64,000 nt of DNA, from NCBI GenBank assembly GCA_964593455.1, contig CAZQHK010000016.1, positions 18,339 to 82,338 on the forward strand. The letters run 5' to 3'. Below are positions 4,228 through 62,168 of the stretch, piece after piece (positions within the stretch are counted from its first letter, which is position 1; each line of letters begins with the position of its first letter). A program made the position numbers and the translations under genes. The DNA is from an uncultured bacterium. GTDB taxonomy: Bacteria > Muiribacteriota > CAYSPT01. Under the pieces are notes generated by a model. The model made no database searches and had not been told where the DNA came from. It saw only the letters and a program-made list of their open reading frames with translations.

Positions 4228-5176
4228 CAAGAAAATTATACCGGTTGATTTTTCCCGTCTAAAACGTGGACCACTCGGCGATAAAAAGCACAAAGTTACT
4301 CTGGACCGGCAAGCCGGTAAGCCGGTTGCGGGTGCCACCCTCGAAGAATTCTGCCGGGCTCTGCCGGGTGTGCTGGCAGCGGACGCTTTTCAAATGGTGG
4401 TTAAAGCTCTGGTAGAAGCTACCAGAAACGGACGGGATATCGTACTGGCATGCGGTGCTCACGTTATCAAGTGCGGCCTCTCTCCTCTTCTGAACGAACT
4501 CATGCAGCGGAAACTCGTTTCTCTGATTGCGCTAAACGGCGCCGGAGCAATTCATGATGCCGAGTTGGCAATGGTGGGCAGTACGTCGGAAGATGTCATG
4601 ACCGTGGTCAAGGATGGAAGTTTCGGTATGGCCCGGGAGACCGGCGCATTCTACGGCCGGGCGGTTGAAATGGGAACGACCATGCAGATGGGGCTTGGTG
4701 AGGCTCTCGGAATGACATTGATCCAGGATCAAGCTCCGTATTGTTCCGACAGCGTTCTCGCCCAGGCGGTTGCTACCGGTACTCCGATTACAGTACACTG
4801 TGCCATCGGCACGGACACGGTCCATACCTTTCCGGAGGTGGATCCGAGCGGGCTTGGAGCGCTTACTCATTATGATTTCCGGCTTTTTTGCGGTTGTGTA
4901 AACGGTTTTGAACCCGGAACCGTATATTTGAATGTAGGTTCGGCCGTGATCTTGCCCGAAGTGTTCCTGAAAGCGGTCGGCGTAGCTAAAAACATGGGAC
5001 GGTCACTCGAAGGGCTAACCCGGGTGAACATGGATATGATTCAGCATTACCGGCCACGGGAGAACGTACTGGGCCGGATTAATCCCGAAGAGAACCACCG
5101 ATGTTACGCCTTAACGGGACATCATGAAATAATGCTCCCTCTCCTGGTGTGGAGCTGGCTGAATGGTATTTCATAA
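4220..5176 (+). CDS. Conserved protein with remote deoxyhypusine-synthase-like (DS family) motifs; function unknown
   Basis: ATG overlaps the GT9 stop. The segment LVSLIALNGAGAIHDAELAM resembles the DHS block VDVLVTTAGGVEEDLIK. CGAHVIKCGLSPLLNEL resembles the DHS N-terminal GxxSSGxRE region. Assignment is by motif only. Confidence 0.3.
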   Translation: MDSKKIIPVDFSRLKRGPLGDKKHKVTLDRQAGKPVAGATLEEFCRALPGVLAADAFQMVVKALVEATRNGRDIVLACGAHVIKCGLSPLLNELMQRKLVSLIALNGAGAIHDAELAMVGSTSEDVMTVVKDGSFGMARETGAFYGRAVEMGTTMQMGLGEALGMTLIQDQAPYCSDSVLAQAVATGTPITVHCAIGTDTVHTFPEVDPSGLGALTHYDFRLFCGCVNGFEPGTVYLNVGSAVILPEVFLKAVGVAKNMGRSLEGLTRVNMDMIQHYRPRENVLGRINPEENHRCYALTGHHEIMLPLLVWSWLNGIS

Positions 5177-5193
5177 ATAGAGGTGTGGTAGAG

Positions 5194-6180
5194 ATGACTA
5201 ACACGGACAAGAGCAGGCTGATCCGATTGATCGAGAAGTTTTCCCGCTGCCGGATTCTGGTGGTGGGAGATGTCATGGTAGACGAATATATCTGGGGACG
5301 GGTTACCCGGATTTCTCCGGAAGCTCCTGTTCCGGTAGTGGAGCGGCGGGGCTGTTCACTCGTTCCCGGAGGAGCCGGGAATGTCGTGAGAACACTCATT
5401 TCACTGGGTGCGAACGTGACTTTGATTGGTGAAATAGGCCAGGACTCTTCAGGTGAATGGCTGCGAAGTCATCTGCAAAGCGAGGGAGTCGGAGTGAATG
5501 GCCTGGTCGAAGTTCCCGGTCGTGAAACTACGGTAAAAACCAGAATAATAGCCCATAAACAGCAAGTGGTCAGGGTTGACAGCGAAAACAAATCCCCTAT
5601 CGATGGACCGGTTATTGAAGAATTGCTCCGGAACGTTGAAAATGAATTGGACAGCGTTAACGTCGTTATCCTCTCCGATTACGCCAAAGGACTTCTTCAC
5701 AAGAAAACCATACCACTCATCGTGGAGAAGTGTCTGGAGAAGGGAGTTATGGTGGCGGTAGACCCTGCCGTCCACCATGCTGACCTGTACCGGGGAGTAA
5801 CCGTGCTGACTCCGAATCACCACGAGGCGGCGCTCATGGCCGGCCGGGAGATGGAGACCGAGGATGATGTCGAAGATGTCGGCACCAGCCTGGCCGGGAG
5901 GTTGGGTTGCCGGTACCTGGTCATCACCCGTGGGGAAGATGGTATGACGGTATTGGAAGCGGAGCAAAAGGCCATCGAACATATTCCGGCGGTGGCCCGT
6001 GAAGTGTTCGACGTGACCGGGGCGGGTGATACCGTGATTGGGACCCTGGCTCTCGGTTTGGCCGCCGGAGGCGGTATACTCGAGGCCGCGATCATATCCA
6101 ACTACGCGGCGGGTGTGGTGGTGGCCAAGTTCGGTACAGCCACGGTAACCGTCGATGAGCTGAAAGAAGTAATTGGCTAG
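5194..6180 (+). CDS. hldE: D-glycero-beta-D-manno-heptose-7-phosphate kinase (RfaE domain I), second copy
   Basis: ATG at 5194 is preceded by AGAGG. Carries the ILVVGDVMVDEYIWG N-terminus, TTVKTRII...VVRVD block and PfkB C-terminal motif TGAGDTVIG. The ORF call from 5149 is probably over-extended. Confidence 0.85.
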   Translation: MTNTDKSRLIRLIEKFSRCRILVVGDVMVDEYIWGRVTRISPEAPVPVVERRGCSLVPGGAGNVVRTLISLGANVTLIGEIGQDSSGEWLRSHLQSEGVGVNGLVEVPGRETTVKTRIIAHKQQVVRVDSENKSPIDGPVIEELLRNVENELDSVNVVILSDYAKGLLHKKTIPLIVEKCLEKGVMVAVDPAVHHADLYRGVTVLTPNHHEAALMAGREMETEDDVEDVGTSLAGRLGCRYLVITRGEDGMTVLEAEQKAIEHIPAVAREVFDVTGAGDTVIGTLALGLAAGGGILEAAIISNYAAGVVVAKFGTATVTVDELKEVIG

Positions 6181-43443: not shown

Positions 43444-43617
43444 CTGCGGCAGCGTTTTTTTGGCTGGTTTTTTTTCCACTTTGCTTCGATCCCTTCCTCT
43501 AGCTCTTAACGAGCCCAAGAGGGTGAAAAGTTCATTAAAAAGTGTATCATTGATACGTTTATTGTGCAAGAGCCGCCGTCCGGACATCAGTTGACAGTCT
43601 TCAGGCGGCCAAGTAAA

Positions 43618-45426
43618 ATGGAACATATGAAAACGCTCCAGGATCTTGCTTCATCCCTTGAATCGAAAGGGGAATCTAAGGCTCTTTCATGGAAGCAGGG
43701 CGGGGATATTGTTTCTCATTCGTACCGGGAATTAGGCCGCCGCGTTCGTGATTTCAGCCGGGGATTCCTGAAGATGGGTTTGAAACCGGGCGATACGGTC
43801 GTCTTGCTTTCGCACAATAACCCGGAGTGGATAGGCTTGAGTCTGGGGCTCAACAACGCCGGCCTGGTTGATGTCCCGCGGGGCGAAAACACCACCTCCG
43901 ATGAGATCAAGTACTTTATCGAGCACAGCCGGGCCGGGGTAGTTATCGTCCAGAACAAGACGTTTTTGAAAATGGTGCGCGATCTCGATCTCCCCGACCT
44001 GAAAACGATCATCTCCATGGAGAAAATTGATGGTGTCCGGCATACATCCGAGGTGCTCGCTGCCGGGAAAAACAGTTCGGTTACTGTTCCGGAAGTGACT
44101 CCCGCTACCACCGCCAGTCTGATCTACACTTCGGGGACCACTTCGCTGCCCAAGGGAGTCGAGCTGACACACGGCAATTTTTGCAGCAATATCAGGAGCC
44201 TGGTCAAATTTCTTCCCATCAGTACGAAAGACAAGTTCATATCGATTCTGCCTGCCTGGCACGCCCTGGAGCGTATTTCAAAATATATGACCCTGACAGT
44301 CGGCGCGGAGACGTTCTATTCGACCTGGCGCACGCTCAGGTCCGACCTGCTGGAACAGAAACCAACCATCATGGTTTCCGTCCCCCGGATCTGGGACATG
44401 ATCTATACCCGGCTAATGAAACGGGTCAAAGAGCAAGGCGGTCTGAGCCGCCGGCTTTTCTCCGTTGGCATGAAAGTGTCCATCGATTACGTCCGCCGCC
44501 GCCGTGAGTTCGAGTTGGTTAAACTGTTCGAGTACCCGTTCTACCATTACATGGACCGGCACGTTTTTTCACGGCTGCGAAAAAGAATGGGTGGCCGGTT
44601 CAGGTTCGCCGTTTCGGGAGGGTCTTCCCTGCCGCGGCACGTGGACGATTTCTTCCGGGTGGCCGGAGTGGAGATTCTGGAAGGATACGGTTTGACGGAG
44701 ACCAGCCCGGTGGTGGCCCTCAGGGTCCCCGGAAACACGGTCCCGTACACCGTCGGTCCGGTGTTGGAAGACATAGAAGCCAGGATTATCGACCAGGAAA
44801 CGGAAGAAGTTCTCCCGCTCATGGAAAAGGGAGTACTTCATGTCCGGGGCCCAAATATCATGAAAGGGTATTACCGGAATCCCACTGAGACGAGCCGTGT
44901 ACTTCAGGGTGACGGGTGGTTTAACACCGGTGATATCGGGTATTTCACCAGAAAAGGCGATCTGGTCATTACCGGCCGGGCAAAGGATATCATCGTTCTC
45001 TCCAACGGCGAGAACATCAACCCGGTTCCCATGGAAGACGTCCTGAAAGAGAGCGAATATATCGCCGAAGCCATCATGGTCGGGCAGGAGTGGAAACAGC
45101 CCGGGGCCCTGATCGTACCTGATTTCGATACGTTGCGGGAATACTGCGATCAAAATGGTATTTCCTATCATTCGGACCGGCTGTATGACGTTTTCAGTAA
45201 CCCGAATATCAAACAACTTTTTACTGCCGAGATCGACCGGTTGCTCAATAGCCAATCCTGGTGTAAGTCGTACGAAAAAATCCAGAATTTCCGGATGGTG
45301 TACGCGCCGTTTACCGTGGGCAAGGAGTTGACGCCGACCTTGAAACCCAAACGGGCGGTCATCGAAGAGCTGTACAAGGAGTTAATCGAAAGTCTCTGGC
45401 TTTCCATTCACCAGAAGAAACGGTAG
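43618..45426 (+). CDS. Long-chain acyl-CoA synthetase (AMP-dependent synthetase/ligase, FAA1/FadD15 type)
   Basis: AMP-binding motif IYTSGTTSLPKGVELTHGN, EGYGLTETSP and TGDIGYF...GRAKDII motifs. Divergent from the DUF5989/radical-SAM operon. Confidence 0.85.
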   Translation: MEHMKTLQDLASSLESKGESKALSWKQGGDIVSHSYRELGRRVRDFSRGFLKMGLKPGDTVVLLSHNNPEWIGLSLGLNNAGLVDVPRGENTTSDEIKYFIEHSRAGVVIVQNKTFLKMVRDLDLPDLKTIISMEKIDGVRHTSEVLAAGKNSSVTVPEVTPATTASLIYTSGTTSLPKGVELTHGNFCSNIRSLVKFLPISTKDKFISILPAWHALERISKYMTLTVGAETFYSTWRTLRSDLLEQKPTIMVSVPRIWDMIYTRLMKRVKEQGGLSRRLFSVGMKVSIDYVRRRREFELVKLFEYPFYHYMDRHVFSRLRKRMGGRFRFAVSGGSSLPRHVDDFFRVAGVEILEGYGLTETSPVVALRVPGNTVPYTVGPVLEDIEARIIDQETEEVLPLMEKGVLHVRGPNIMKGYYRNPTETSRVLQGDGWFNTGDIGYFTRKGDLVITGRAKDIIVLSNGENINPVPMEDVLKESEYIAEAIMVGQEWKQPGALIVPDFDTLREYCDQNGISYHSDRLYDVFSNPNIKQLFTAEIDRLLNSQSWCKSYEKIQNFRMVYAPFTVGKELTPTLKPKRAVIEELYKELIESLWLSIHQKKR

Positions 45427-45609
45427 CCCGCATATTTCACCAGTCTCTGTCGTGAGGACATGGAGGCGCTTGTAACTTCAAGGCACGCGACCAAGGCTTC
45501 CGCAGACGTATCCTTTGCGATACGTTGAGGACAGCCGACCGAGCGTAACGCAGAAGATGCACGTGCATCCGTGTCCGCAACAGGATGATTGGTGAAATAT
45601 GCGGGCTAT
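45424..45609. mobile_element. MITE-like repeat element, copy A (~186 bp) with perfect 19-bp terminal inverted repeats TAGCCCGCATATTTCACCA
   Basis: Left TIR 45424-45442 and right TIR 45591-45609 are a perfect reverse complement. The internal sequence is ~85% identical to the reverse complement of copy B (56750-56934) and contains an internal hairpin ACGTATC...GATACGT. The left TAG is the stop codon of the acyl-CoA synthetase. Confidence 0.6.
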
Positions 45610-45616
45610 TGCTGCC

Positions 45617-46894
45617 TCAGGGTGAGTAGAGGACGATATCCTTATAGCGTTCCATGTTGTCGTCCTGTTTATCTGCTCCCGGACTGTACAGCACAAAAGA
45701 GTCTCCCGATCGCCGGTAGATCAAATCTGCATTGGTATAGACGTCTCCGGGTAACGGTCGCCCCGCGTGATCCCTGAGTTCCGTCAAGCTGTTCGGATAC
45801 GCGTTTCGGTCTCGGTAAAACTCGTTTAGCAGGTGAATTATCTCAAGTCCGCGCCTGTACTGGGAGATTTTCAGATCCTGGATATACGCCCGTTTGATAC
45901 CCGGTACGGCAATAGCGATCAGGGTCGCCGCCAGGCGCTCACCGCCTGACAGGCTGCGCTCTCCCCCTCCGCCTGCTTCCCTGGATAGTTTCATTATGTA
46001 TTCGCTTACCCGGTCGAGATCTGCTTCTCCATCCACGAATCCCCGTTTCATGGCCTTCTCGCCTTCGTCGTAGATAAAGGCCAGCATCCGGTCAAAATGT
46101 TTCTGGGCCGCCCGGCCGTAAAAAAATATGAGGAACCGGTCATAGAGGCTTTTCTTTACTTTGGTCGGCTTTTCGGTTTCGTCGCTGCTACCCGTGGAAA
46201 ACAACGACAGGCTGAAATGCTCCTTGAAGTTGAATCTTTCCAGACTCGTCCGTTCGGCATCGAGGGCCTCACTCAGGCCGGCTCTCTTTTCCAGGAGGAG
46301 ATCGATTGATTCCAGGATGGTCTTTTCCTCGCGGTTGTCGAGACAGCGGTTCCCCATCAGCAAGGCCAGTCTTTCCAGGGCCACTTTCTGGATGGCGATG
46401 GAAATCATGTGGGTGATCAAGGTTCTCTGGGTCCCGAATCCGTATCCGCTGTCGATACCGCACTTGAACACCTGGCGATATACGAGGCTGGCTTTCGAGA
46501 TACGGCCGGTAAGTTTGAAATAATCACCAAAAACGGCCACGGCCCGGCCGCTTGTCCTGAGCGTGTTGAAATCGGGAATATCACCGTGAATTATTTCCAG
46601 GAAGTTCATTGTTCGATAATCTTTGGGAGGAAAAACGATATAGGTCGGTATTTCCTGCCGGTAGTATTTCATGAACTGCTCAAAAAAGTCTTTATGGATT
46701 ATTACGTATTCTTTCAGTGCCGGCAGGTCTTTCTCTTCCAGGGGTATTCCTGTGATAAGTCCGGGTTGGTATTCAAGTCCCTGACAGAAATCGAGCGCAA
46801 TCTTTTTGGCGCGGCAGACAGGTGGCAGGATGATTGCCTGGATGAACAGGACCAGCAAACTTACTATCCCCAACAGCCGAAGGTCTTTATTCAT
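45617..46894 (-). CDS. Hypothetical secreted / membrane-anchored protein
   Basis: ATG at 46894 gives the N-terminus MNKDLRLLGIVSLLVLFIQAIILPPV (signal/anchor). 425 aa, no recognised domain. Gly-rich loop REAGGGGERSLSGGER. Confidence 0.4.
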   Translation of the reverse strand: MNKDLRLLGIVSLLVLFIQAIILPPVCRAKKIALDFCQGLEYQPGLITGIPLEEKDLPALKEYVIIHKDFFEQFMKYYRQEIPTYIVFPPKDYRTMNFLEIIHGDIPDFNTLRTSGRAVAVFGDYFKLTGRISKASLVYRQVFKCGIDSGYGFGTQRTLITHMISIAIQKVALERLALLMGNRCLDNREEKTILESIDLLLEKRAGLSEALDAERTSLERFNFKEHFSLSLFSTGSSDETEKPTKVKKSLYDRFLIFFYGRAAQKHFDRMLAFIYDEGEKAMKRGFVDGEADLDRVSEYIMKLSREAGGGGERSLSGGERLAATLIAIAVPGIKRAYIQDLKISQYRRGLEIIHLLNEFYRDRNAYPNSLTELRDHAGRPLPGDVYTNADLIYRRSGDSFVLYSPGADKQDDNMERYKDIVLYSP

Positions 46895-46974
46895 GAGATA
46901 TCCATTGTACCGGATAGTGTTTAGAGAGGCAATGAACTGTTGAATACACCGGATTAACATGATACCTTGTCACC

Positions 46975-55540: not shown

Positions 55541-55673
55541 TTTCTCACCTGCAAAAACATTATTCTGGTTACGTGTTCCGGATCAATTTGGTGATATAAT
55601 CAGAACGATCTGTAAACGTGGTATCTTTGTTGCAAAGTCAGGTTTGGAAGACCCTGATAAGGAGATTTCCCGG

Positions 55674-56645
55674 ATGAATTGGTTCTACATGAAACTCCAG
55701 CCGAAAGATGAGGATGATGTGCTCTTCGTTCATTACGGGTTACCCCGGACGGGAAGTTCTACCATCCGGTTTCTCATCCGCCGCTACTGCAACCTTCTCG
55801 GACTGAAATGGGAATCTTTCGAGGCGCAAAACGCGGTAGTCAATCCCGGTTGTAAATATCTGCTGGTTGAAATCCCGTATCCTGTTCATCTGGCCACCAA
55901 CCGGGAATGCCGTTATATAACGACGCTGAGAGATCCGGTCAAAGCGGTGTGTTCCTGGTATTTCTGGCTCACCAGGATCGGCCGGAAAATCACTCTGGAA
56001 GACTATGTCCGGCAATTACCGAAATCCTATAATCTCATGTCGCGCTGGCTCATAAGGCTCAATGATGAAACCGTGAGCGAAATGAATCGCGCTCAACCGG
56101 ATTTTATGAACGACACGACAGGATTTTTCAATGATATTCCTGATGATGAGTTGTACAAAGCAGCTCTCGAGGCAATAGAAAGCAAGATATCATTGATCGG
56201 TATCCTGGAGCAGTTCGAGGATTTTTCTTTTGCTATGCTCGACTTGTTTGCCTGGAAGATTCTGCCTGTCTATAGCCGGACGAATTACAGTATAAAACCC
56301 AGAGATTGGTCATTTAACCGTCTCGAAAAATCGATGAAAAAGAAGATTATGTCCTCTTCAGCTGTGGACAGGCGCGTGTTTTCTTATGTGAGGAAACGTT
56401 TTCGGGATGTGTCTGCGGATGTGCGGAATAAGTATGGTAACGAGATCGAGAAATACCGTTCCTTCTGCCGCCAATTGGATGATTTTATCGTTCGAGAAAA
56501 AGGACTGGTTTTGGAAGATGGGAATATCGTCTCTCAAAACTGGGAACAAACCGTTGTAGAAAAGCCTATAGGCATCGAAATAAAAGCCTCGATACAGAAG
56601 CAGTTGGGAATAATCATGGCAGAGGATTGGTTACCTATTATCTAA
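55674..56645 (+). CDS. Sulfotransferase-family protein (PAPS-dependent)
   Basis: AAGGAG RBS 9 nt before ATG 55674. 5'-PSB motif YGLPRTGSST and 3'-PB motif TLRDPVKAV. The ORF call from 55644 (TTG) is the longer alternative. Confidence 0.65.
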   Translation: MNWFYMKLQPKDEDDVLFVHYGLPRTGSSTIRFLIRRYCNLLGLKWESFEAQNAVVNPGCKYLLVEIPYPVHLATNRECRYITTLRDPVKAVCSWYFWLTRIGRKITLEDYVRQLPKSYNLMSRWLIRLNDETVSEMNRAQPDFMNDTTGFFNDIPDDELYKAALEAIESKISLIGILEQFEDFSFAMLDLFAWKILPVYSRTNYSIKPRDWSFNRLEKSMKKKIMSSSAVDRRVFSYVRKRFRDVSADVRNKYGNEIEKYRSFCRQLDDFIVREKGLVLEDGNIVSQNWEQTVVEKPIGIEIKASIQKQLGIIMAEDWLPII

Positions 56646-56749
56646 CAGTACCGAACCTTCCGAGTCATTTGACGGCTTGACCTGCTAATCCAGCTTACTT
56701 TCCACATTCCTTAACTGATCTTCTGGAATCTCTACATAGAATGAGAACC

Positions 56750-56934
56750 TAGCCTGGATATTTCACCAGTCTTCCTGCTGCGGCCACGGATGCACCCGCA
56801 TCTTCTGCGTTGTGCTCGGTCGCCTGTCCTCGACGTATCGCAGAGGATACGTCTGCGGAAGGCTCGGTTGCACGCCTTGAATTTGCAGGCACCTCCGCGA
56901 CCTCGCTACGGAAACTCGTGAAATATCCGGGCTA
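56750..56934. mobile_element. MITE-like repeat element, copy B (~185 bp), inverted relative to copy A
   Basis: Left TIR TAGCCTGGATATTTCACCAG and right TIR (reverse complement) TAGCCCGGATATTTCACGAG. The interior is the reverse complement of copy A at ~85% identity. The right-end TAG (complement of CTA at 56932-56934) is the stop codon of pmbA on the minus strand. Confidence 0.6.
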
Positions 56935-58356
56935 GGCCGAAACCGAGACATCGTCCACCAGTATCGCGGGACAGAAGATATTGTTGCTGGCCTGGTAAGG
57001 TGTGTCTCCCAACGCCAGCAGGTGGTTGAGATCTTCCAGGATATTGCCCGATACCATGGTGTTCTTCACGCGGCCGGCGAGCTGCCCGTTCTTGATCCGG
57101 TATCCGAGATAGACATTCACCGAGTAATCCCCGTTTTGAATATCGCCCCGGCCGGCGCCCATGACCTGGTTCACGAGCAGACCATCGTCCACCATGCGGA
57201 TAATCTCTTCGAGCGGGGCAGGTCCTGGAGAGACGGTTATATTGCTGATGGTGGTGTGCGGCATGACGGCAAAACTGGTACCGCCGCTGCGGCTTCTCCG
57301 GTACCCGTTGCCGGTGGGTGGGATTTTGAGACGCGCGGCGGTCTCCAGATCGCAGATAATCGAGCTGGGAATGCCGTTTTCTACCAGGACGGTCCGCCGT
57401 GACGGCGTTCCCTCGTCGTCAAAGGGCGAGCTTCCGGGTAGAAAATCCATGGTGCTGTCATCCACCACCGTCAGGTTTGAGCTGAAGGTTTCCTTATCCA
57501 TCCTGGATTGCAGGATGGAGATACCTTCCAGAAAACTCCGGCCGTTCACGGCCGCCAACAGCGGCAGCAAAATGGCATTTATCGCCGATCCGGTAAAAAG
57601 CACCGGACATTGTCCGGTGCTCATGGAGCTTATTTCGCGGGCCAGTTGAACTTTTTCCACGAGTTTCCGGGCCACACCCGCTAAATGCTCGGGGTCCCAA
57701 CGGCAGGAGTAAGAACTCTCGGAACAGGAGAGAATGTCACCTTCTTTTACGAGTTTAGCCGAGACGAATACCACTACCAGGCTCTGGAGATAGCTCCCTT
57801 TCAAAGCCTGGTTGTTTCTTACCGATTTGAGCTCGAACACGCGATACACATCAGCCAGGACATTGGCGTCGGGTAGATCTTTCAGCACCCGGTCGACGAC
57901 CTCCCGGCCGATATCAATGAGACTGTTGATGTCCTGGTCCGCCACCTCCCGGTCGAAGGTTTTGACCGGAGAAAAAGAGGTGGCCGGGGTCAGGAACGAG
58001 GCTGCCGAGGTGGGACCGAGCGGGGCCATTTCCAAAGCCAGCAGGAGCGCTTCCATCAATCGGCTGGACTCGGTGGTGGAGGCGATTCCCATGCGTCCGT
58101 CCCGTAAAACTCTGAGTCCCCAGCCTTCGGACTCCTTGTGTTGGCTCTGTTTGAGGTCGCGGTTCTCAAAGCTGAAATGATCCAAATCCCGCGTTTCATA
58201 AAAAATTTCCAGGGATGTCCCCCGGGCCCTGGCGGCTTCTTCAAGCCCCGCGTAGAGAACTTCACGGGCCTGCTCGTTTTTCAGGGTGCTTTCGTTTCCT
58301 TGAATCTCCGTCATCTGCTTCATGTCCTTCACGTTACATGCCTCCAACCACGACAT
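56932..58356 (-). CDS. pmbA: TldE/PmbA-family protein (non-catalytic partner of TldD metallopeptidase)
   Basis: PmbA/TldD fold, lacks HExxxH. Paired with and overlapping tldD. Probable start at M12 (MKQMTEI). Confidence 0.8.
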   Translation of the reverse strand: MSWLEACNVKDMKQMTEIQGNESTLKNEQAREVLYAGLEEAARARGTSLEIFYETRDLDHFSFENRDLKQSQHKESEGWGLRVLRDGRMGIASTTESSRLMEALLLALEMAPLGPTSAASFLTPATSFSPVKTFDREVADQDINSLIDIGREVVDRVLKDLPDANVLADVYRVFELKSVRNNQALKGSYLQSLVVVFVSAKLVKEGDILSCSESSYSCRWDPEHLAGVARKLVEKVQLAREISSMSTGQCPVLFTGSAINAILLPLLAAVNGRSFLEGISILQSRMDKETFSSNLTVVDDSTMDFLPGSSPFDDEGTPSRRTVLVENGIPSSIICDLETAARLKIPPTGNGYRRSRSGGTSFAVMPHTTISNITVSPGPAPLEEIIRMVDDGLLVNQVMGAGRGDIQNGDYSVNVYLGYRIKNGQLAGRVKNTMVSGNILEDLNHLLALGDTPYQASNNIFCPAILVDDVSVSA

Positions 58357-59963: not shown

Positions 59964-61052
59964 ATGCCGATTGTGAACGCTCTGCGGTTTGACTATAAAC
60001 GTGGAGCTATCTTAAGCGACGAAGAATACTGGCATCGCCGCCGCCGCCGGACATTTTTCTCCGAGAATCTTCACAATATTGTTCCTGAACAAATTTCAGA
60101 CAAAACGGGACTTGAAGCTGTGTTGGGCGGGGCCGGGAGTCCTACCTTCTTTCTTGATGTGGTCCGGACGGTTCGCTCCCGGTTGGCGGTCTATCTGCCG
60201 GAAAACGGGGAAGAACTGAAAGAAGGCGCTCCTTCCACCCTTGAAGAGTTGGGAAAGATCGTTCTCGAGGAACTGCACAAAGCGCTGAAACGACGCCTGG
60301 AGAACGTGATTCGTCTCTACTTCGGATTTGGGATGGATGATCTTAACCAGGGATCTTTTGATTTCAACGGCGAGTCGGTGGAGATTCTTCAGGACCTGGT
60401 TAAGAAGGAAGCCAGGGAGGTTTCTTCGGGAAAAGGAAAAGTGTCGTTTATCAACGACCTGATCGAGAGTCGGGGAGTGCTTTTCGGTTATGATGAAAAG
60501 AAAGGCGTCACCTGTTATTACATTAACGTCAAAGAAGGCGTTCTCTCCGTCACTTCGGGCGGTTTTGAAGCAATCGGCAACGGTAAGTACGCTTCGGGAA
60601 TCACGTTTGCCGAGTTCCTGAACGGTAAGATACTGGACGAGCGCCGAGGCGGATTTGACCCGGTGGAAGGAATGATTGTCCTGCTTAAATCCGGCCTGGC
60701 CGCGGTACAGTATTTCAGCGAAGTAGGCGGAGCCTTCAATATCATCTACCTCGACAATACGGCCGGCTCCCACGCCGAGCGTTATCGTGAAATCCCGTAT
60801 CATACCACCACGCTGGCTGCTGAAATTGTCACCGCTATGGAGTGCGGCGCTTTAGACTACGAGAAAGCATATAACCTGATGGGTTCCTTGATGTTTGGCG
60901 GATCTTCCGTGGAGAAAGTTGAAAAGGAACTCTTTGCTTCCGTTCCCGACGCCGATCGTCTCCATCTGCTGTTGGAGGGCTACAAACTCAGTCAACTGGA
61001 GGTACAGGATCGCAAATCTATCGGACATACCGGAGAGGAAGCGGGCCAATGA
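59964..61052 (+). CDS. Hypothetical protein, paralog 1. N-terminal domain resembles HslV/proteasome-beta Ntn hydrolases but has Pro at position 2
   Basis: Strong RBS [29 protein letters not shown] aligns with HslV [40 protein letters not shown] aligns with HslV DKVIAGFAGGTADAFTLFE. Has a ~180-aa C-terminal extension of unknown fold. Paralogous to the next gene. Confidence 0.35.
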   Translation: [362 protein letters not shown]

Positions 61053-62149
61053 CTTCGATCAACGCCATCCGTTTCGACAGCCTTAAAGGGGCCATGGTAT
61101 GTGACGAATGCCGGGGTTGGAACCCGGAAGACATGAGAATTTACTCCGCCGATAAGATCAAGCCGGTTATTCCCGATGAAATCAGGGACCGTTACGGTTT
61201 AGTCGCCTGTTACGGCAATACCGGTTCTTCCAGCACCGGTGACGAGATCAAACAGAAAATCCGGGAACGGGTTCAGAAAGAGTTCGACGATGCCCGGGAA
61301 CGGTTGGGCCGTCCGCCCGAAACATTCCTGACTATACGGAACCTGGCCTACCTGGCTTACGACGAGCAGTGCAAGATGAAACACAGGCACGTGGACGAGC
61401 ACATGGTCAGCCATTATGGTTTTAACACCCGGGATTTCTGCCGCGGATCCTACACGATCGATGACACCACCCAGCCGGGTGGAAAAAGAAAAATAGAGAT
61501 CAAGGACAAGGACGTACAGAAGGAGATTTTAGAAGCGCTCACCTGGAAGAATCGCGGGCAAACCAACCGGGGCGTGTTCGTCAATGCCGGACTGCTGGCC
61601 GGTTATGAACCCCGGGAAGGGTTCAGGATCTACCACACATCGCTTATCGAGTTCATATGCGAACCGGTTCAGTTTATCTTTCTGGCTGAAGGTTCGGGGC
61701 TGGACGCCACCGATCTCTTGATGTCCGAATACATGGGCCGGAAATCATTACCGGAACGGCGAGACGTGATCGACCGGGTGGAAGGTATCATGGCTCTCAT
61801 CTGTTCGGTAAATACCGCCTCGCGGCACAATATCGGGGTTGGGGGATATTTTAACATCATCCTGGTTGACGGCCGGGAGAAGGACCCGGCCTCAATGATG
61901 CGCTGTATCAACGACCACCGGGCCAAATTGGTGACCCAGATAGCCGATGCTTACACGCAGAACCTTGTTTCCCGCCGATTGGCCTTTAAATTGGTGGAAG
62001 ATGTTTTATATAATAAGGCCGGGTTTCAGGAAACCCGCCAGGCATTTTTTGAGGGATGCAAAGAACCGGAGATCCTGCGAAGACACCTTCGTGGTTACCG
62101 GATTGCTTCCCCGAAAGGTCCGGTACGGTTAGGGATATTTCTTCCATAG
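61049..62149 (+). CDS. Hypothetical protein, paralog 2. HslV/proteasome-beta-like N-terminus beginning Met-Thr-Ser (potential N-terminal Thr nucleophile)
   Basis: ATGA-coupled to paralog 1. MTSINAIRFDSLKGAMVCDE and YGLVACYGNTGSSSTGDEI blocks parallel paralog 1 and HslV. Shares the later blocks G(I/L)(T/D)..(E/D)(F/L)L.G(K/R) and FNII(Y/L)(L/V)D with paralog 1. Confidence 0.35.
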   Translation: MTSINAIRFDSLKGAMVCDECRGWNPEDMRIYSADKIKPVIPDEIRDRYGLVACYGNTGSSSTGDEIKQKIRERVQKEFDDARERLGRPPETFLTIRNLAYLAYDEQCKMKHRHVDEHMVSHYGFNTRDFCRGSYTIDDTTQPGGKRKIEIKDKDVQKEILEALTWKNRGQTNRGVFVNAGLLAGYEPREGFRIYHTSLIEFICEPVQFIFLAEGSGLDATDLLMSEYMGRKSLPERRDVIDRVEGIMALICSVNTASRHNIGVGGYFNIILVDGREKDPASMMRCINDHRAKLVTQIADAYTQNLVSRRLAFKLVEDVLYNKAGFQETRQAFFEGCKEPEILRRHLRGYRIASPKGPVRLGIFLP

Positions 62150-62168
62150 CCTGGATATTTCACGAGAG
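62147..62168. repeat. Solo terminal repeat (TAGCCTGGATATTTCACGAGAG) of the MITE-like family
   Basis: Identical over 16 nt to the left TIR of copy B and near-identical to B's right TIR. The TAG is the stop codon of CDS 61049-62149. No matching second TIR within 300 bp. Confidence 0.35.

Follow-up and report, generated by a model that had tools for sequence, protein, structure and literature searches.

Palindromic MITEs with IS1380-family ends abutting stop codons in a Muiribacteriota contig: probable insertion into CTAG targets

Introduction

Three unrelated genes of one bacterial contig end on a TAG at which a repeated element begins, and the question raised by this locus is whether the element supplies these stop codons or was inserted at stops that the genes already possessed. 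The DNA analysed, hereafter the window, is a stretch of 64,000 nucleotides (nt) from an uncultured bacterium of the Muiribacteriota (assembly GCA_964593455.1, contig CAZQHK010000016.1, positions 18,339 to 82,338) and contains two full copies of the element, A and B, and a solo end. The original prediction, made from the letters of the window, described a MITE-like family (MITE, miniature inverted-repeat transposable element) whose terminal inverted repeats (TIRs) supply TAG stops to flanking genes. Judged by their termini, the elements are indeed MITEs, with ends of the IS1380 family of insertion sequences (ISs). The reading favoured here, with a probability of roughly 0.75, is that they were mobilised by an IS1380 transposase that targets CTAG and duplicates 4 bp, and that they were retained at gene ends of the form C-TAG.

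Results and Discussion

Two copies and a solo end at three stop codons

Copy A (45424-45608, plus strand) and copy B (56750-56934, inverted) align from end to end with 83-87% identity, in line with the value of about 85% first proposed, copy A being now taken to end at 45608. The elements measure 179 bp proper, or 185 bp when the TAG and CTA at their boundaries are counted, within the range of roughly 100-400 bp for MITEs, and the element proper begins with CCCG and finishes with CGGG. The similarity between the copies ends at the TAG/CTA boundaries, beyond which the flanks are unrelated, and therefore a segmental duplication, the alternative named in the original prediction, is ruled out. The 20-nt end consensus TAGCCYGSATATTTCACSAG is matched five times in the window, where 100 shuffles give an expectation of 0.00: the four TIRs of the two copies and the solo end at 62147-62166, which had been placed at 62147-62168 and is the remnant of an element whose remaining part was deleted. 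Open frames within the element reach 60 codons, and its length is too small for a transposase gene. The following features are concerned, and the ends of the three open reading frames (ORFs) agree with the earlier claim that the boundary TAG is the actual stop of three unrelated genes.

43564..45426, plus strand: AMP-binding long-chain acyl-CoA ligase gene (Pfam); its stop abuts copy A
45423..45426, plus strand: GTAG, left flank of copy A; the TAG at 45424-45426 is the acyl-CoA ligase stop
45427..45605, plus strand: copy A proper, MITE of 179 bp from CCCGCATATTTCACCAG to TTGGTGAAATATGCGGG, an imperfect palindrome over the whole element; nhmmer family profile E = 2.6e-38
45606..45609, plus strand: CTAT, right flank of copy A, imperfect partner of GTAG
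56749..56752, no strand: the other CTAG flank of copy B, a 4-bp direct repeat that matches 56932-56935 perfectly
56753..56931, minus strand: copy B proper, MITE of 179 bp, inverted with respect to copy A; nhmmer E = 1.8e-40
56932..56935, no strand: pmbA-side CTAG flank of copy B; 56934-56932 on the minus strand is TAG, the pmbA stop
56932..58356, minus strand: PmbA/TldD-family gene (pmbA; Pfam); its stop abuts copy B
61049..62149, plus strand: conserved hypothetical gene, 366 aa, no Pfam match; its stop abuts the solo end
62146..62149, plus strand: ATAG, flank of the solo end; the TAG is the stop of ORF 61049..62149
62150..62166, plus strand: solo end CCTGGATATTTCACGAG, matching the end consensus

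The ends belong to the IS1380 family

IS1380-family elements are described with CC ends and direct repeats of 4-5 bp, and the CCCG...CGGG element with its 4-bp flanking repeats agrees with this description. A scan of one genome per species with the end pattern TAGCCNGNATATTTCAC returned at least 120 loci (loci are cited below by L numbers). Among the matches listed, the two free positions of the pattern are far from random and mostly read TAGCCCGGATATTTCAC, and an IS1380 transposase gene adjoins the end in 13 fetched loci. In a Chthoniobacter metagenome-assembled genome (MAG; L042), an inverted pair of such ends encloses 1.64 kb of DNA with a transposase ORF. This ORF matches the Pfam model PF13701 with E = 3e-125 and, at 307.6 bits against a cutoff of 180, the NCBIfam model NF033539, 'IS1380 family transposase'. 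Complete IS1380 elements of 1.56-1.74 kb with these ends are also present at L035, L048, L101 and L118.

On annotated plasmids the nearest transposases (~50% identity) are, going by the NCBI 'IS1380-like element' names, those of ISPosp7, ISPa33 and ISMaq4 (annotated on NC_007950.1, NZ_CP124659.1 and NC_008739.1, respectively), and each of the three ISs has such ends, with CTAG flanks. Over 17 nt, both ends of copy A, TAGCCCGCATATTTCAC, match the right end of ISPosp7 (Polaromonas JS666 plasmid 2) without a difference, and ISPa33 and ISMaq4 have the end variant ...GGATTTCTCAT, close to the ...GGATTTCTCAC of metagenome MITE copies. Thus, the window elements share with the three ISs the terminal 17 nt, ends that start with CC and CTAG flanks. 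The ISs are autonomous, 1.57-1.62 kb long and equipped with a transposase gene, whereas the window elements are 179 bp long, transposase-free and unrelated to them in the interior. When plasmids were searched with the MITE itself, nothing matched.

Since the window elements contain no transposase and have IS1380-type ends, they are non-autonomous derivatives that would be moved in trans. The assignment to a MITE family is upheld by TIRs conserved elsewhere, multiple copies and shared IS ends, and the cognate transposase, which the original prediction suggested looking for, belongs to the IS1380 family, with none encoded in the window. The parent IS family is already known and no new kind of system is revealed; the MITE family itself is a new addition to it. 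A literature search found no paper in which MITEs are derived from IS1380 elements or in which these elements target CTAG, and the TIR strings were absent from the papers searched.

Palindromic, intergenic and adjacent to stop codons, with a GTAG in front of copy A, the elements could also be regarded as REP/BIME-like palindromes moved by a RAYT (Y1, IS200/IS605-like) transposase that recognises a GTAG-type tetranucleotide. This explanation fails because the ends are identical over 17 nt to those of ISs of the IS1380 family, which are DDE elements. The length of 179 bp is far above REP size (20-40 nt), 4-bp direct repeats flank the elements, and among the four NTAG contexts GTAG is the least frequent (6 of 207 ends), all of which makes a REP origin extremely improbable, although no RAYT gene was looked for.

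The stop positions are shared with relatives without the element

A marine relative (TARA), with 94% DNA identity in the pmbA region, does not carry copy B and reads GGTTTCGGCC-TAG-G (GGCC-TAG-G) at the equivalent position. Its homology with the window (94% over 2358 nt) stops exactly at the pmbA TAG (window 56932 / L133:2358). Because this relative already ends pmbA in GCC-TAG, the stop would not be supplied by the element; copy B was probably inserted at a pre-existing stop codon, which it preserves, and the proposal that the TIRs supply the TAG stops is probably incorrect.

The C-terminal residues of the other two proteins point in the same direction. The acyl-CoA ligase terminates in ...HQKKR, and its relatives of 62-63% identity in ...HQKKKR followed by TAA, with the same end residue; the 366-aa protein and its 75% identical relative (L185) share the same last residue, with a TAG stop in both. 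Since the C-termini of the three genes match those of the relatives, the elements are, as judged by this comparison, located at the native stop position in all three genes and neither truncate nor extend the proteins. MITEs that alter or abut a stop at gene 3' ends have been described, namely QMITE2 of Coxiella burnetii and MIRU-like elements (PMC5896051); in those cases the reading frame is extended or truncated, whereas the window elements appear to preserve the native stop in three genes.

Relatives at 67-75% identity are without all three insertions, and the fetched loci of relatives with 62-75% protein identity, ~190 kb with near-duplicate loci counted in, contain no copy. L183 and L184, relatives whose protein is 99% identical, also retain the solo end, which is absent from L185. 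An identical acyl-CoA ligase is encoded in five contigs, all five of which have the copy A element, and the nearest other relatives of this ligase (62%) have a different downstream gene.

The TAG as part of a duplicated target site

The flanks were examined in an unbiased end search anchored on CC[CTA][GC]..T.T.TCA, in which TAG was not forced. In the 67 paired elements recovered, the flanking 4-mers are CTAG/CTAG in 27, CTAA/CTAA in five, TTAG/TTAG in four and CTAT/CTAT in one. Identical 4-mers flank 37 of the 51 clean pairs, and 10 of the identical pairs are non-palindromic. These non-palindromic pairs argue for a 4-bp target duplication, and most likely, on the evidence of the flanks, the TAG belongs to the duplicated target and not to the inverted repeat, so that the element proper would extend from CCCG to CGGG.

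An alternative, in line with the original prediction, is that the TAG lies within the inverted repeat, with only TA being duplicated and G being the first base of the element, which would then donate a stop wherever a TA is targeted. TA-targeting MITEs of the IS630 and Correia type offer a parallel, and the base at position -1 of the TAG-forced ends is mostly a pyrimidine (C 70, T 44, A 14 and G 6; 85% pyrimidine). With fixed G...C termini, this model also fits TTAG/CTAA (L038, L042), TTAG/CTAG (L035, L100) and the GTAG/CTAT of copy A better. It would, on the other hand, need repeated asymmetric terminal mutations that mimic direct repeats in the 10 identical non-palindromic pairs, the relative without the element already has the TAG, and IS1247, a member of the IS1380 family, is listed with a 5-bp duplication (PMC3281130). 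A TA duplication with G as the first element base, which fitted the TAG-forced data, was dropped after the unbiased end search, and the TA model is judged unlikely.

The same data bear on the likeness to REP, Correia and RUP elements seen in the original prediction, of which the behaviour stands and the membership does not. As in Correia/NEMIS (Neisseria), RUP (S. pneumoniae) and other bacterial MITEs (PMC2229807, PMC5896051), the elements are small and intergenic, have TIRs, form an RNA stem-loop, have a TA-containing target and would be mobilised in trans. The parent IS family is a different one (RUP is linked to IS630-Spn1), TA is duplicated in those elements as against the 4 bp proposed here, and no sequence similarity between Correia/NEMIS/RUP and the window elements was found. 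Membership of the Correia/RUP/IS630 type was rejected on two grounds, namely that the TIRs match IS1380-family ISs and that the flank statistics favour a 4-bp duplication.

Target rarity and proposed selection at gene ends

At 41 of 207 non-redundant ends the boundary triplet closes, in frame, a reading frame open for 150 codons or more, against 16 and 25 in the two control frames, and in the TAG-forced set 28 of 122 ends close such a frame, against 7 and 11. In the 180-nt family about 12 of 60 ends close a frame after filtering on the GC content of third codon positions (GC3). The coincidence with stop codons is statistically supported, and it is most likely explained by the choice of target together with selection against insertions within genes, not by stop donation.

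CTAG is the most avoided tetranucleotide in many bacteria. It occurs 18 times in the window, against 247 occurrences expected from composition and 53 from a Markov model; 11 of these sites are inside ORFs and seven outside, four of the latter at stop codons. Two of the seven sites outside ORFs are the duplicated flanks of copy B itself, and one of these two is the pmbA stop. Relative to base composition, CTAG is depleted ~14-fold in the window, and TTAG and CTAA ~4-5-fold.

In the scenario proposed, an IS1380-family transposase of the clade that includes ISPosp7, ISPa33 and ISMaq4 would move the MITEs in trans, the predicted autonomous partner of the MITEs having the ends CCCGSATATTTCAC. The 179-bp element would insert into CTAG, and less often into CTAA, TTAG or other NTAN, with duplication of the 4 bp, and the insertions would thus be bracketed as ...CTAG|CC...GG|CTAG..., each boundary being a TAG when read inwards. 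Insertions in genes would be removed by selection, and with CTAG depleted, a large share of the tolerated targets would be C-TAG gene ends, at which the elements would accumulate as a result of both the depletion and the purging. The left copy of the duplicated target would keep the gene's own stop, and the insertion would be nearly neutral and persist. Since CTAG is a palindrome, the stop would equally be kept for a gene arriving from the other side, which would favour the gaps between convergent genes. The anatomy of the MITEs, the size of the family, the match of the ends to IS1380-family ISs, the flank counts, the TAG of the relative that lacks the element, the scarcity of CTAG and the conservation of the hairpin are observed here; movement in trans, a mechanism with 4-bp duplication and filtering by selection are inferred.

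As had been noted from the sequence alone, both full copies are located between convergent genes, and the ORF map agrees (43564..45426 on the plus strand facing 45617..46960 on the minus strand, and 55644..56645 on the plus strand facing 56932..58356 on the minus strand). The partners on the far sides are:

45617..46960, minus strand: convergent ORF, 447 aa, no Pfam match; its TGA stop lies 8 nt beyond the right-boundary CTA of copy A (which ends at 45608)
55644..56645, plus strand: convergent ORF, 333 aa, no Pfam match; it ends 104 nt from the TAG/CTA boundary of copy B at 56750

Several observations weigh against CTAG targeting by an IS1380 transposase. A clean empty site with both flanks conserved was not found for copy A, copy B or the solo end; in the TARA relative the DNA downstream of the copy B site is unrelated, and only the left junction is visible. 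Flanks are discordant in 14 of the 51 clean pairs, for instance TTAG/CTAA in L038 and L042, and the GTAG/CTAT of copy A is not a perfect repeat. The first scan of the collection forced TAG, and part of the end sample is therefore biased towards it. No IS1380 transposase is encoded within the 64-kb window, and the full-length ISs fetched share only the ~18-nt terminus with the MITE and none of its interior. Discordance of the flanks may be due to decay (the divergence between copies is 13-30%), to recombination among copies or to donor overhangs that were carried along, and the pair at copy A would be two point changes away from CTAG/CTAG, the left one synonymous (CGC to CGG).

The ends of piggyBac, a eukaryotic superfamily, begin with CCC. 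Its target is likewise a palindromic 4-mer with a central TA, although the tetranucleotide, which piggyBac duplicates, is TTAA in place of the CTAG proposed for the window family. A relation between the IS1380 and piggyBac superfamilies has been stated (bioRxiv 10.1101/2021.09.26.461848) and used (PMC10813416). It is a separate, though doubtful, possibility that the mixture of concordant and discordant flanks corresponds to a piggyBac-like cut-and-paste reaction that carries 4-nt donor overhangs.

CTAG targeting with retention at gene ends would give a mechanistic reason for the presence of bacterial MITEs exactly on stop codons, namely the preference for CTAG and a duplication that preserves the stop, and would link one IS1380 clade to a piggyBac-like palindromic 4-bp target. 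For annotation, it implies that gene ends abutting these repeats are real stops and not artefacts. The reading of synteny breaks is also affected, the boundary of copy B being a synteny breakpoint too, and in metagenome assemblies contigs often break 40-200 nt inside these ends.

Extent of the family and related elements

The original prediction relied on copies within the window and suggested a search beyond it. Such a search, with a 20-base internal core of the element as probe in JGI metagenomes, found 44 loci, and further copies with conserved TIRs were found in MAGs. The core in copy A is located as follows:

45537..45559, plus strand: internal core GACCGAGCGTAACGCAGAAGATG of copy A, the probe that recovered the 44 metagenome loci

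Related copies of ~180 nt number at least 40 in soil, sediment and marine metagenomes. Full-length relatives with 70-76% identity are present in a Terriglobia MAG (L037, L045), and a profile search with nhmmer added more full-length copies in other MAG loci, such as that of a Pirellulales MAG (L064). The copies of the family range from 172 to 199 nt, and the end variants GGATATTTCAC, GGATTTCTCAC, GCCTTTCTCAC and GCATCTCTCAC change jointly on both arms. The case of L037, in which both ends had been considered as stops of convergent genes, was dropped: the left open frame fails the GC3 check and another ORF ends 29 nt upstream.

In the Pirellulales MAG two inverted MITE copies bracket a 320-aa ORF (L064:229-2150) in an arrangement that resembles a composite transposon, with a third copy at 5020-5218. 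Elements of other sizes with the same ends were also observed. IS1380 elements of 0.7-1.1 kb with internal deletions (L038:1063-1900, L041:1251-2350 and L043:5036-5750) keep both ends and a fused transposase remnant, and are intermediates between a full IS and a MITE. Mini-elements of ~36-50 nt, which comprise little beyond two IS1380-type ends back to back, e.g. TAGCCTGCATATTTCACGCGCATGCGCGAAATATGCAGGCTAG, occur in Verrucomicrobiota and other MAGs (L067:1869-1911, L044:4507-4550, L044:4696-4733, L011:3092-3135 and L104) and resemble REP-sized hairpins derived from IS1380-type ends.

At many loci among the matches listed the contig ends 40-200 nt inside the IS end, and four of these (L001, L016, L029 and L077) come from one Burkholderiaceae MAG. 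IS1380-type elements thus appear to break MAG assemblies often, in several phyla.

A hairpin maintained along the whole element

Each copy folds into one long hairpin, of -104.2 kcal/mol (z -11.7) for copy A and -99.2 kcal/mol (z -9.3) for copy B, which is the outcome of the folding check put forward with the original prediction. An RNAalifold consensus of 19 distinct copies contains 58 pairs, 28 of them with compensatory changes, against 4-7 in slid controls. Paired cells amount to 96.7%, compared with 83% in shuffles and 32-45% with slid partners, and none of 500 shuffles reaches any of the observed measures. The compensatory changes are placed in the interior helices 3, 4, 6, 7 and 9 as well as in the TIRs. 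The hairpin of the whole element is therefore kept by compensatory changes, as the paired differences between copies A and B had suggested; the TIRs of 19-20 bp originally described are conserved, but the pairing is not limited to them and runs through the entire element. The apex of the hairpin in copy A is formed by:

45506..45525, plus strand: apical hairpin ACGTATC-CTTTGC-GATACGT of copy A (helix 9), with compensatory changes in 4 of 8 pairs

The two strands are not equivalent. The consensus energy is -87.2 kcal/mol on one strand and -57.3 on the other, with 87 G-U cells versus 3 A-C cells (26 when the unbiased pair union is used), and the strand of higher stability is the same in all 19 copies, although the copies are related by descent and do not represent 19 independent events. 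For copy A and copy B alike, the more stable strand has the sense orientation of the gene that stops at the element.

By analogy with Correia elements, a role as an RNA barrier, RNase III site or 3' stabiliser is possible; the bidirectional terminator or mRNA-stability role of the original prediction is likewise hypothetical. A further explanation is that the host has adopted the elements as 3'-end RNA hairpins, which would separate convergent transcripts, offer a site to RNase III or protect from 3' exonucleases, and that their position reflects selection for this function as well as target choice. It would account for pairing that is kept through the interior as well as the TIRs, for the strand asymmetry with the stable strand being the sense strand in both window copies, and for the placement of both between convergent genes; Correia hairpins are moreover processed by RNase III (PMC2229807). 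The signature of an intrinsic terminator is absent from both copies, with no terminator-like site overlapping either of them and no T run after the hairpin. Across the family there is no orientation bias with respect to the adjoining gene (13 left-only versus 9 right-only), the agreement of 19 out of 19 strands comes from copies that share descent, and relatives of 62-75% identity function without the element. Host adoption is accordingly given a small, though not negligible, chance, and insertion into CTAG with retention at gene ends remains the preferred reading of their position. No Rfam family matched anywhere in the window at the gathering score, nor the element itself at E up to 10, and eight related loci gave nothing at the element with E values as high as 1.

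Hairpins that lack IS1380-type ends, and in which the outer stems differ but remain paired, also contain the inner ~100 nt. These are the following loci, none of which has an Rfam match:

L139:3538-3635, L143:1262-1366, L163:2977-3072, L165:2121-2245 and L170:4425-4538: inner-module hairpins, nhmmer E 6.9e-10 to 9.7e-16

The inner module is built of covarying stems and an apical GTAC hairpin, with CAAGGCGCGCGA and GACCGAGCGCAACGCAGNAGATG as conserved loops around them, and G-U pairs are tolerated on one strand only. The conservation of the probe region is an ascertainment effect; that of the left-hand loop and the shared architecture are not. It is conceivable, but doubtful, that the inner ~100 nt are an unrecognised structured RNA or single-strand DNA module, in which case the MITE would serve to carry a functional hairpin to the 3' ends of genes.

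Neighbouring genes

Between 56932 and 63674 of the window two TldD/PmbA pairs flank two conserved hypothetical genes (360-366 aa, no Pfam match), and this cluster is syntenic in relatives of 67-75% identity (L136/L185). The C-terminal part of the 333-aa ORF at 55644..56645 does not resemble the gene that occupies this place in the 67% relative. Going by how related contigs are annotated, the window is rich in radical-SAM/B12-binding genes. MAGs of Planctomycetota, CSSED10 and Eremiobacterota provide the nearest named homologues (35-50% identity). The GC skew is positive across nearly the whole window.

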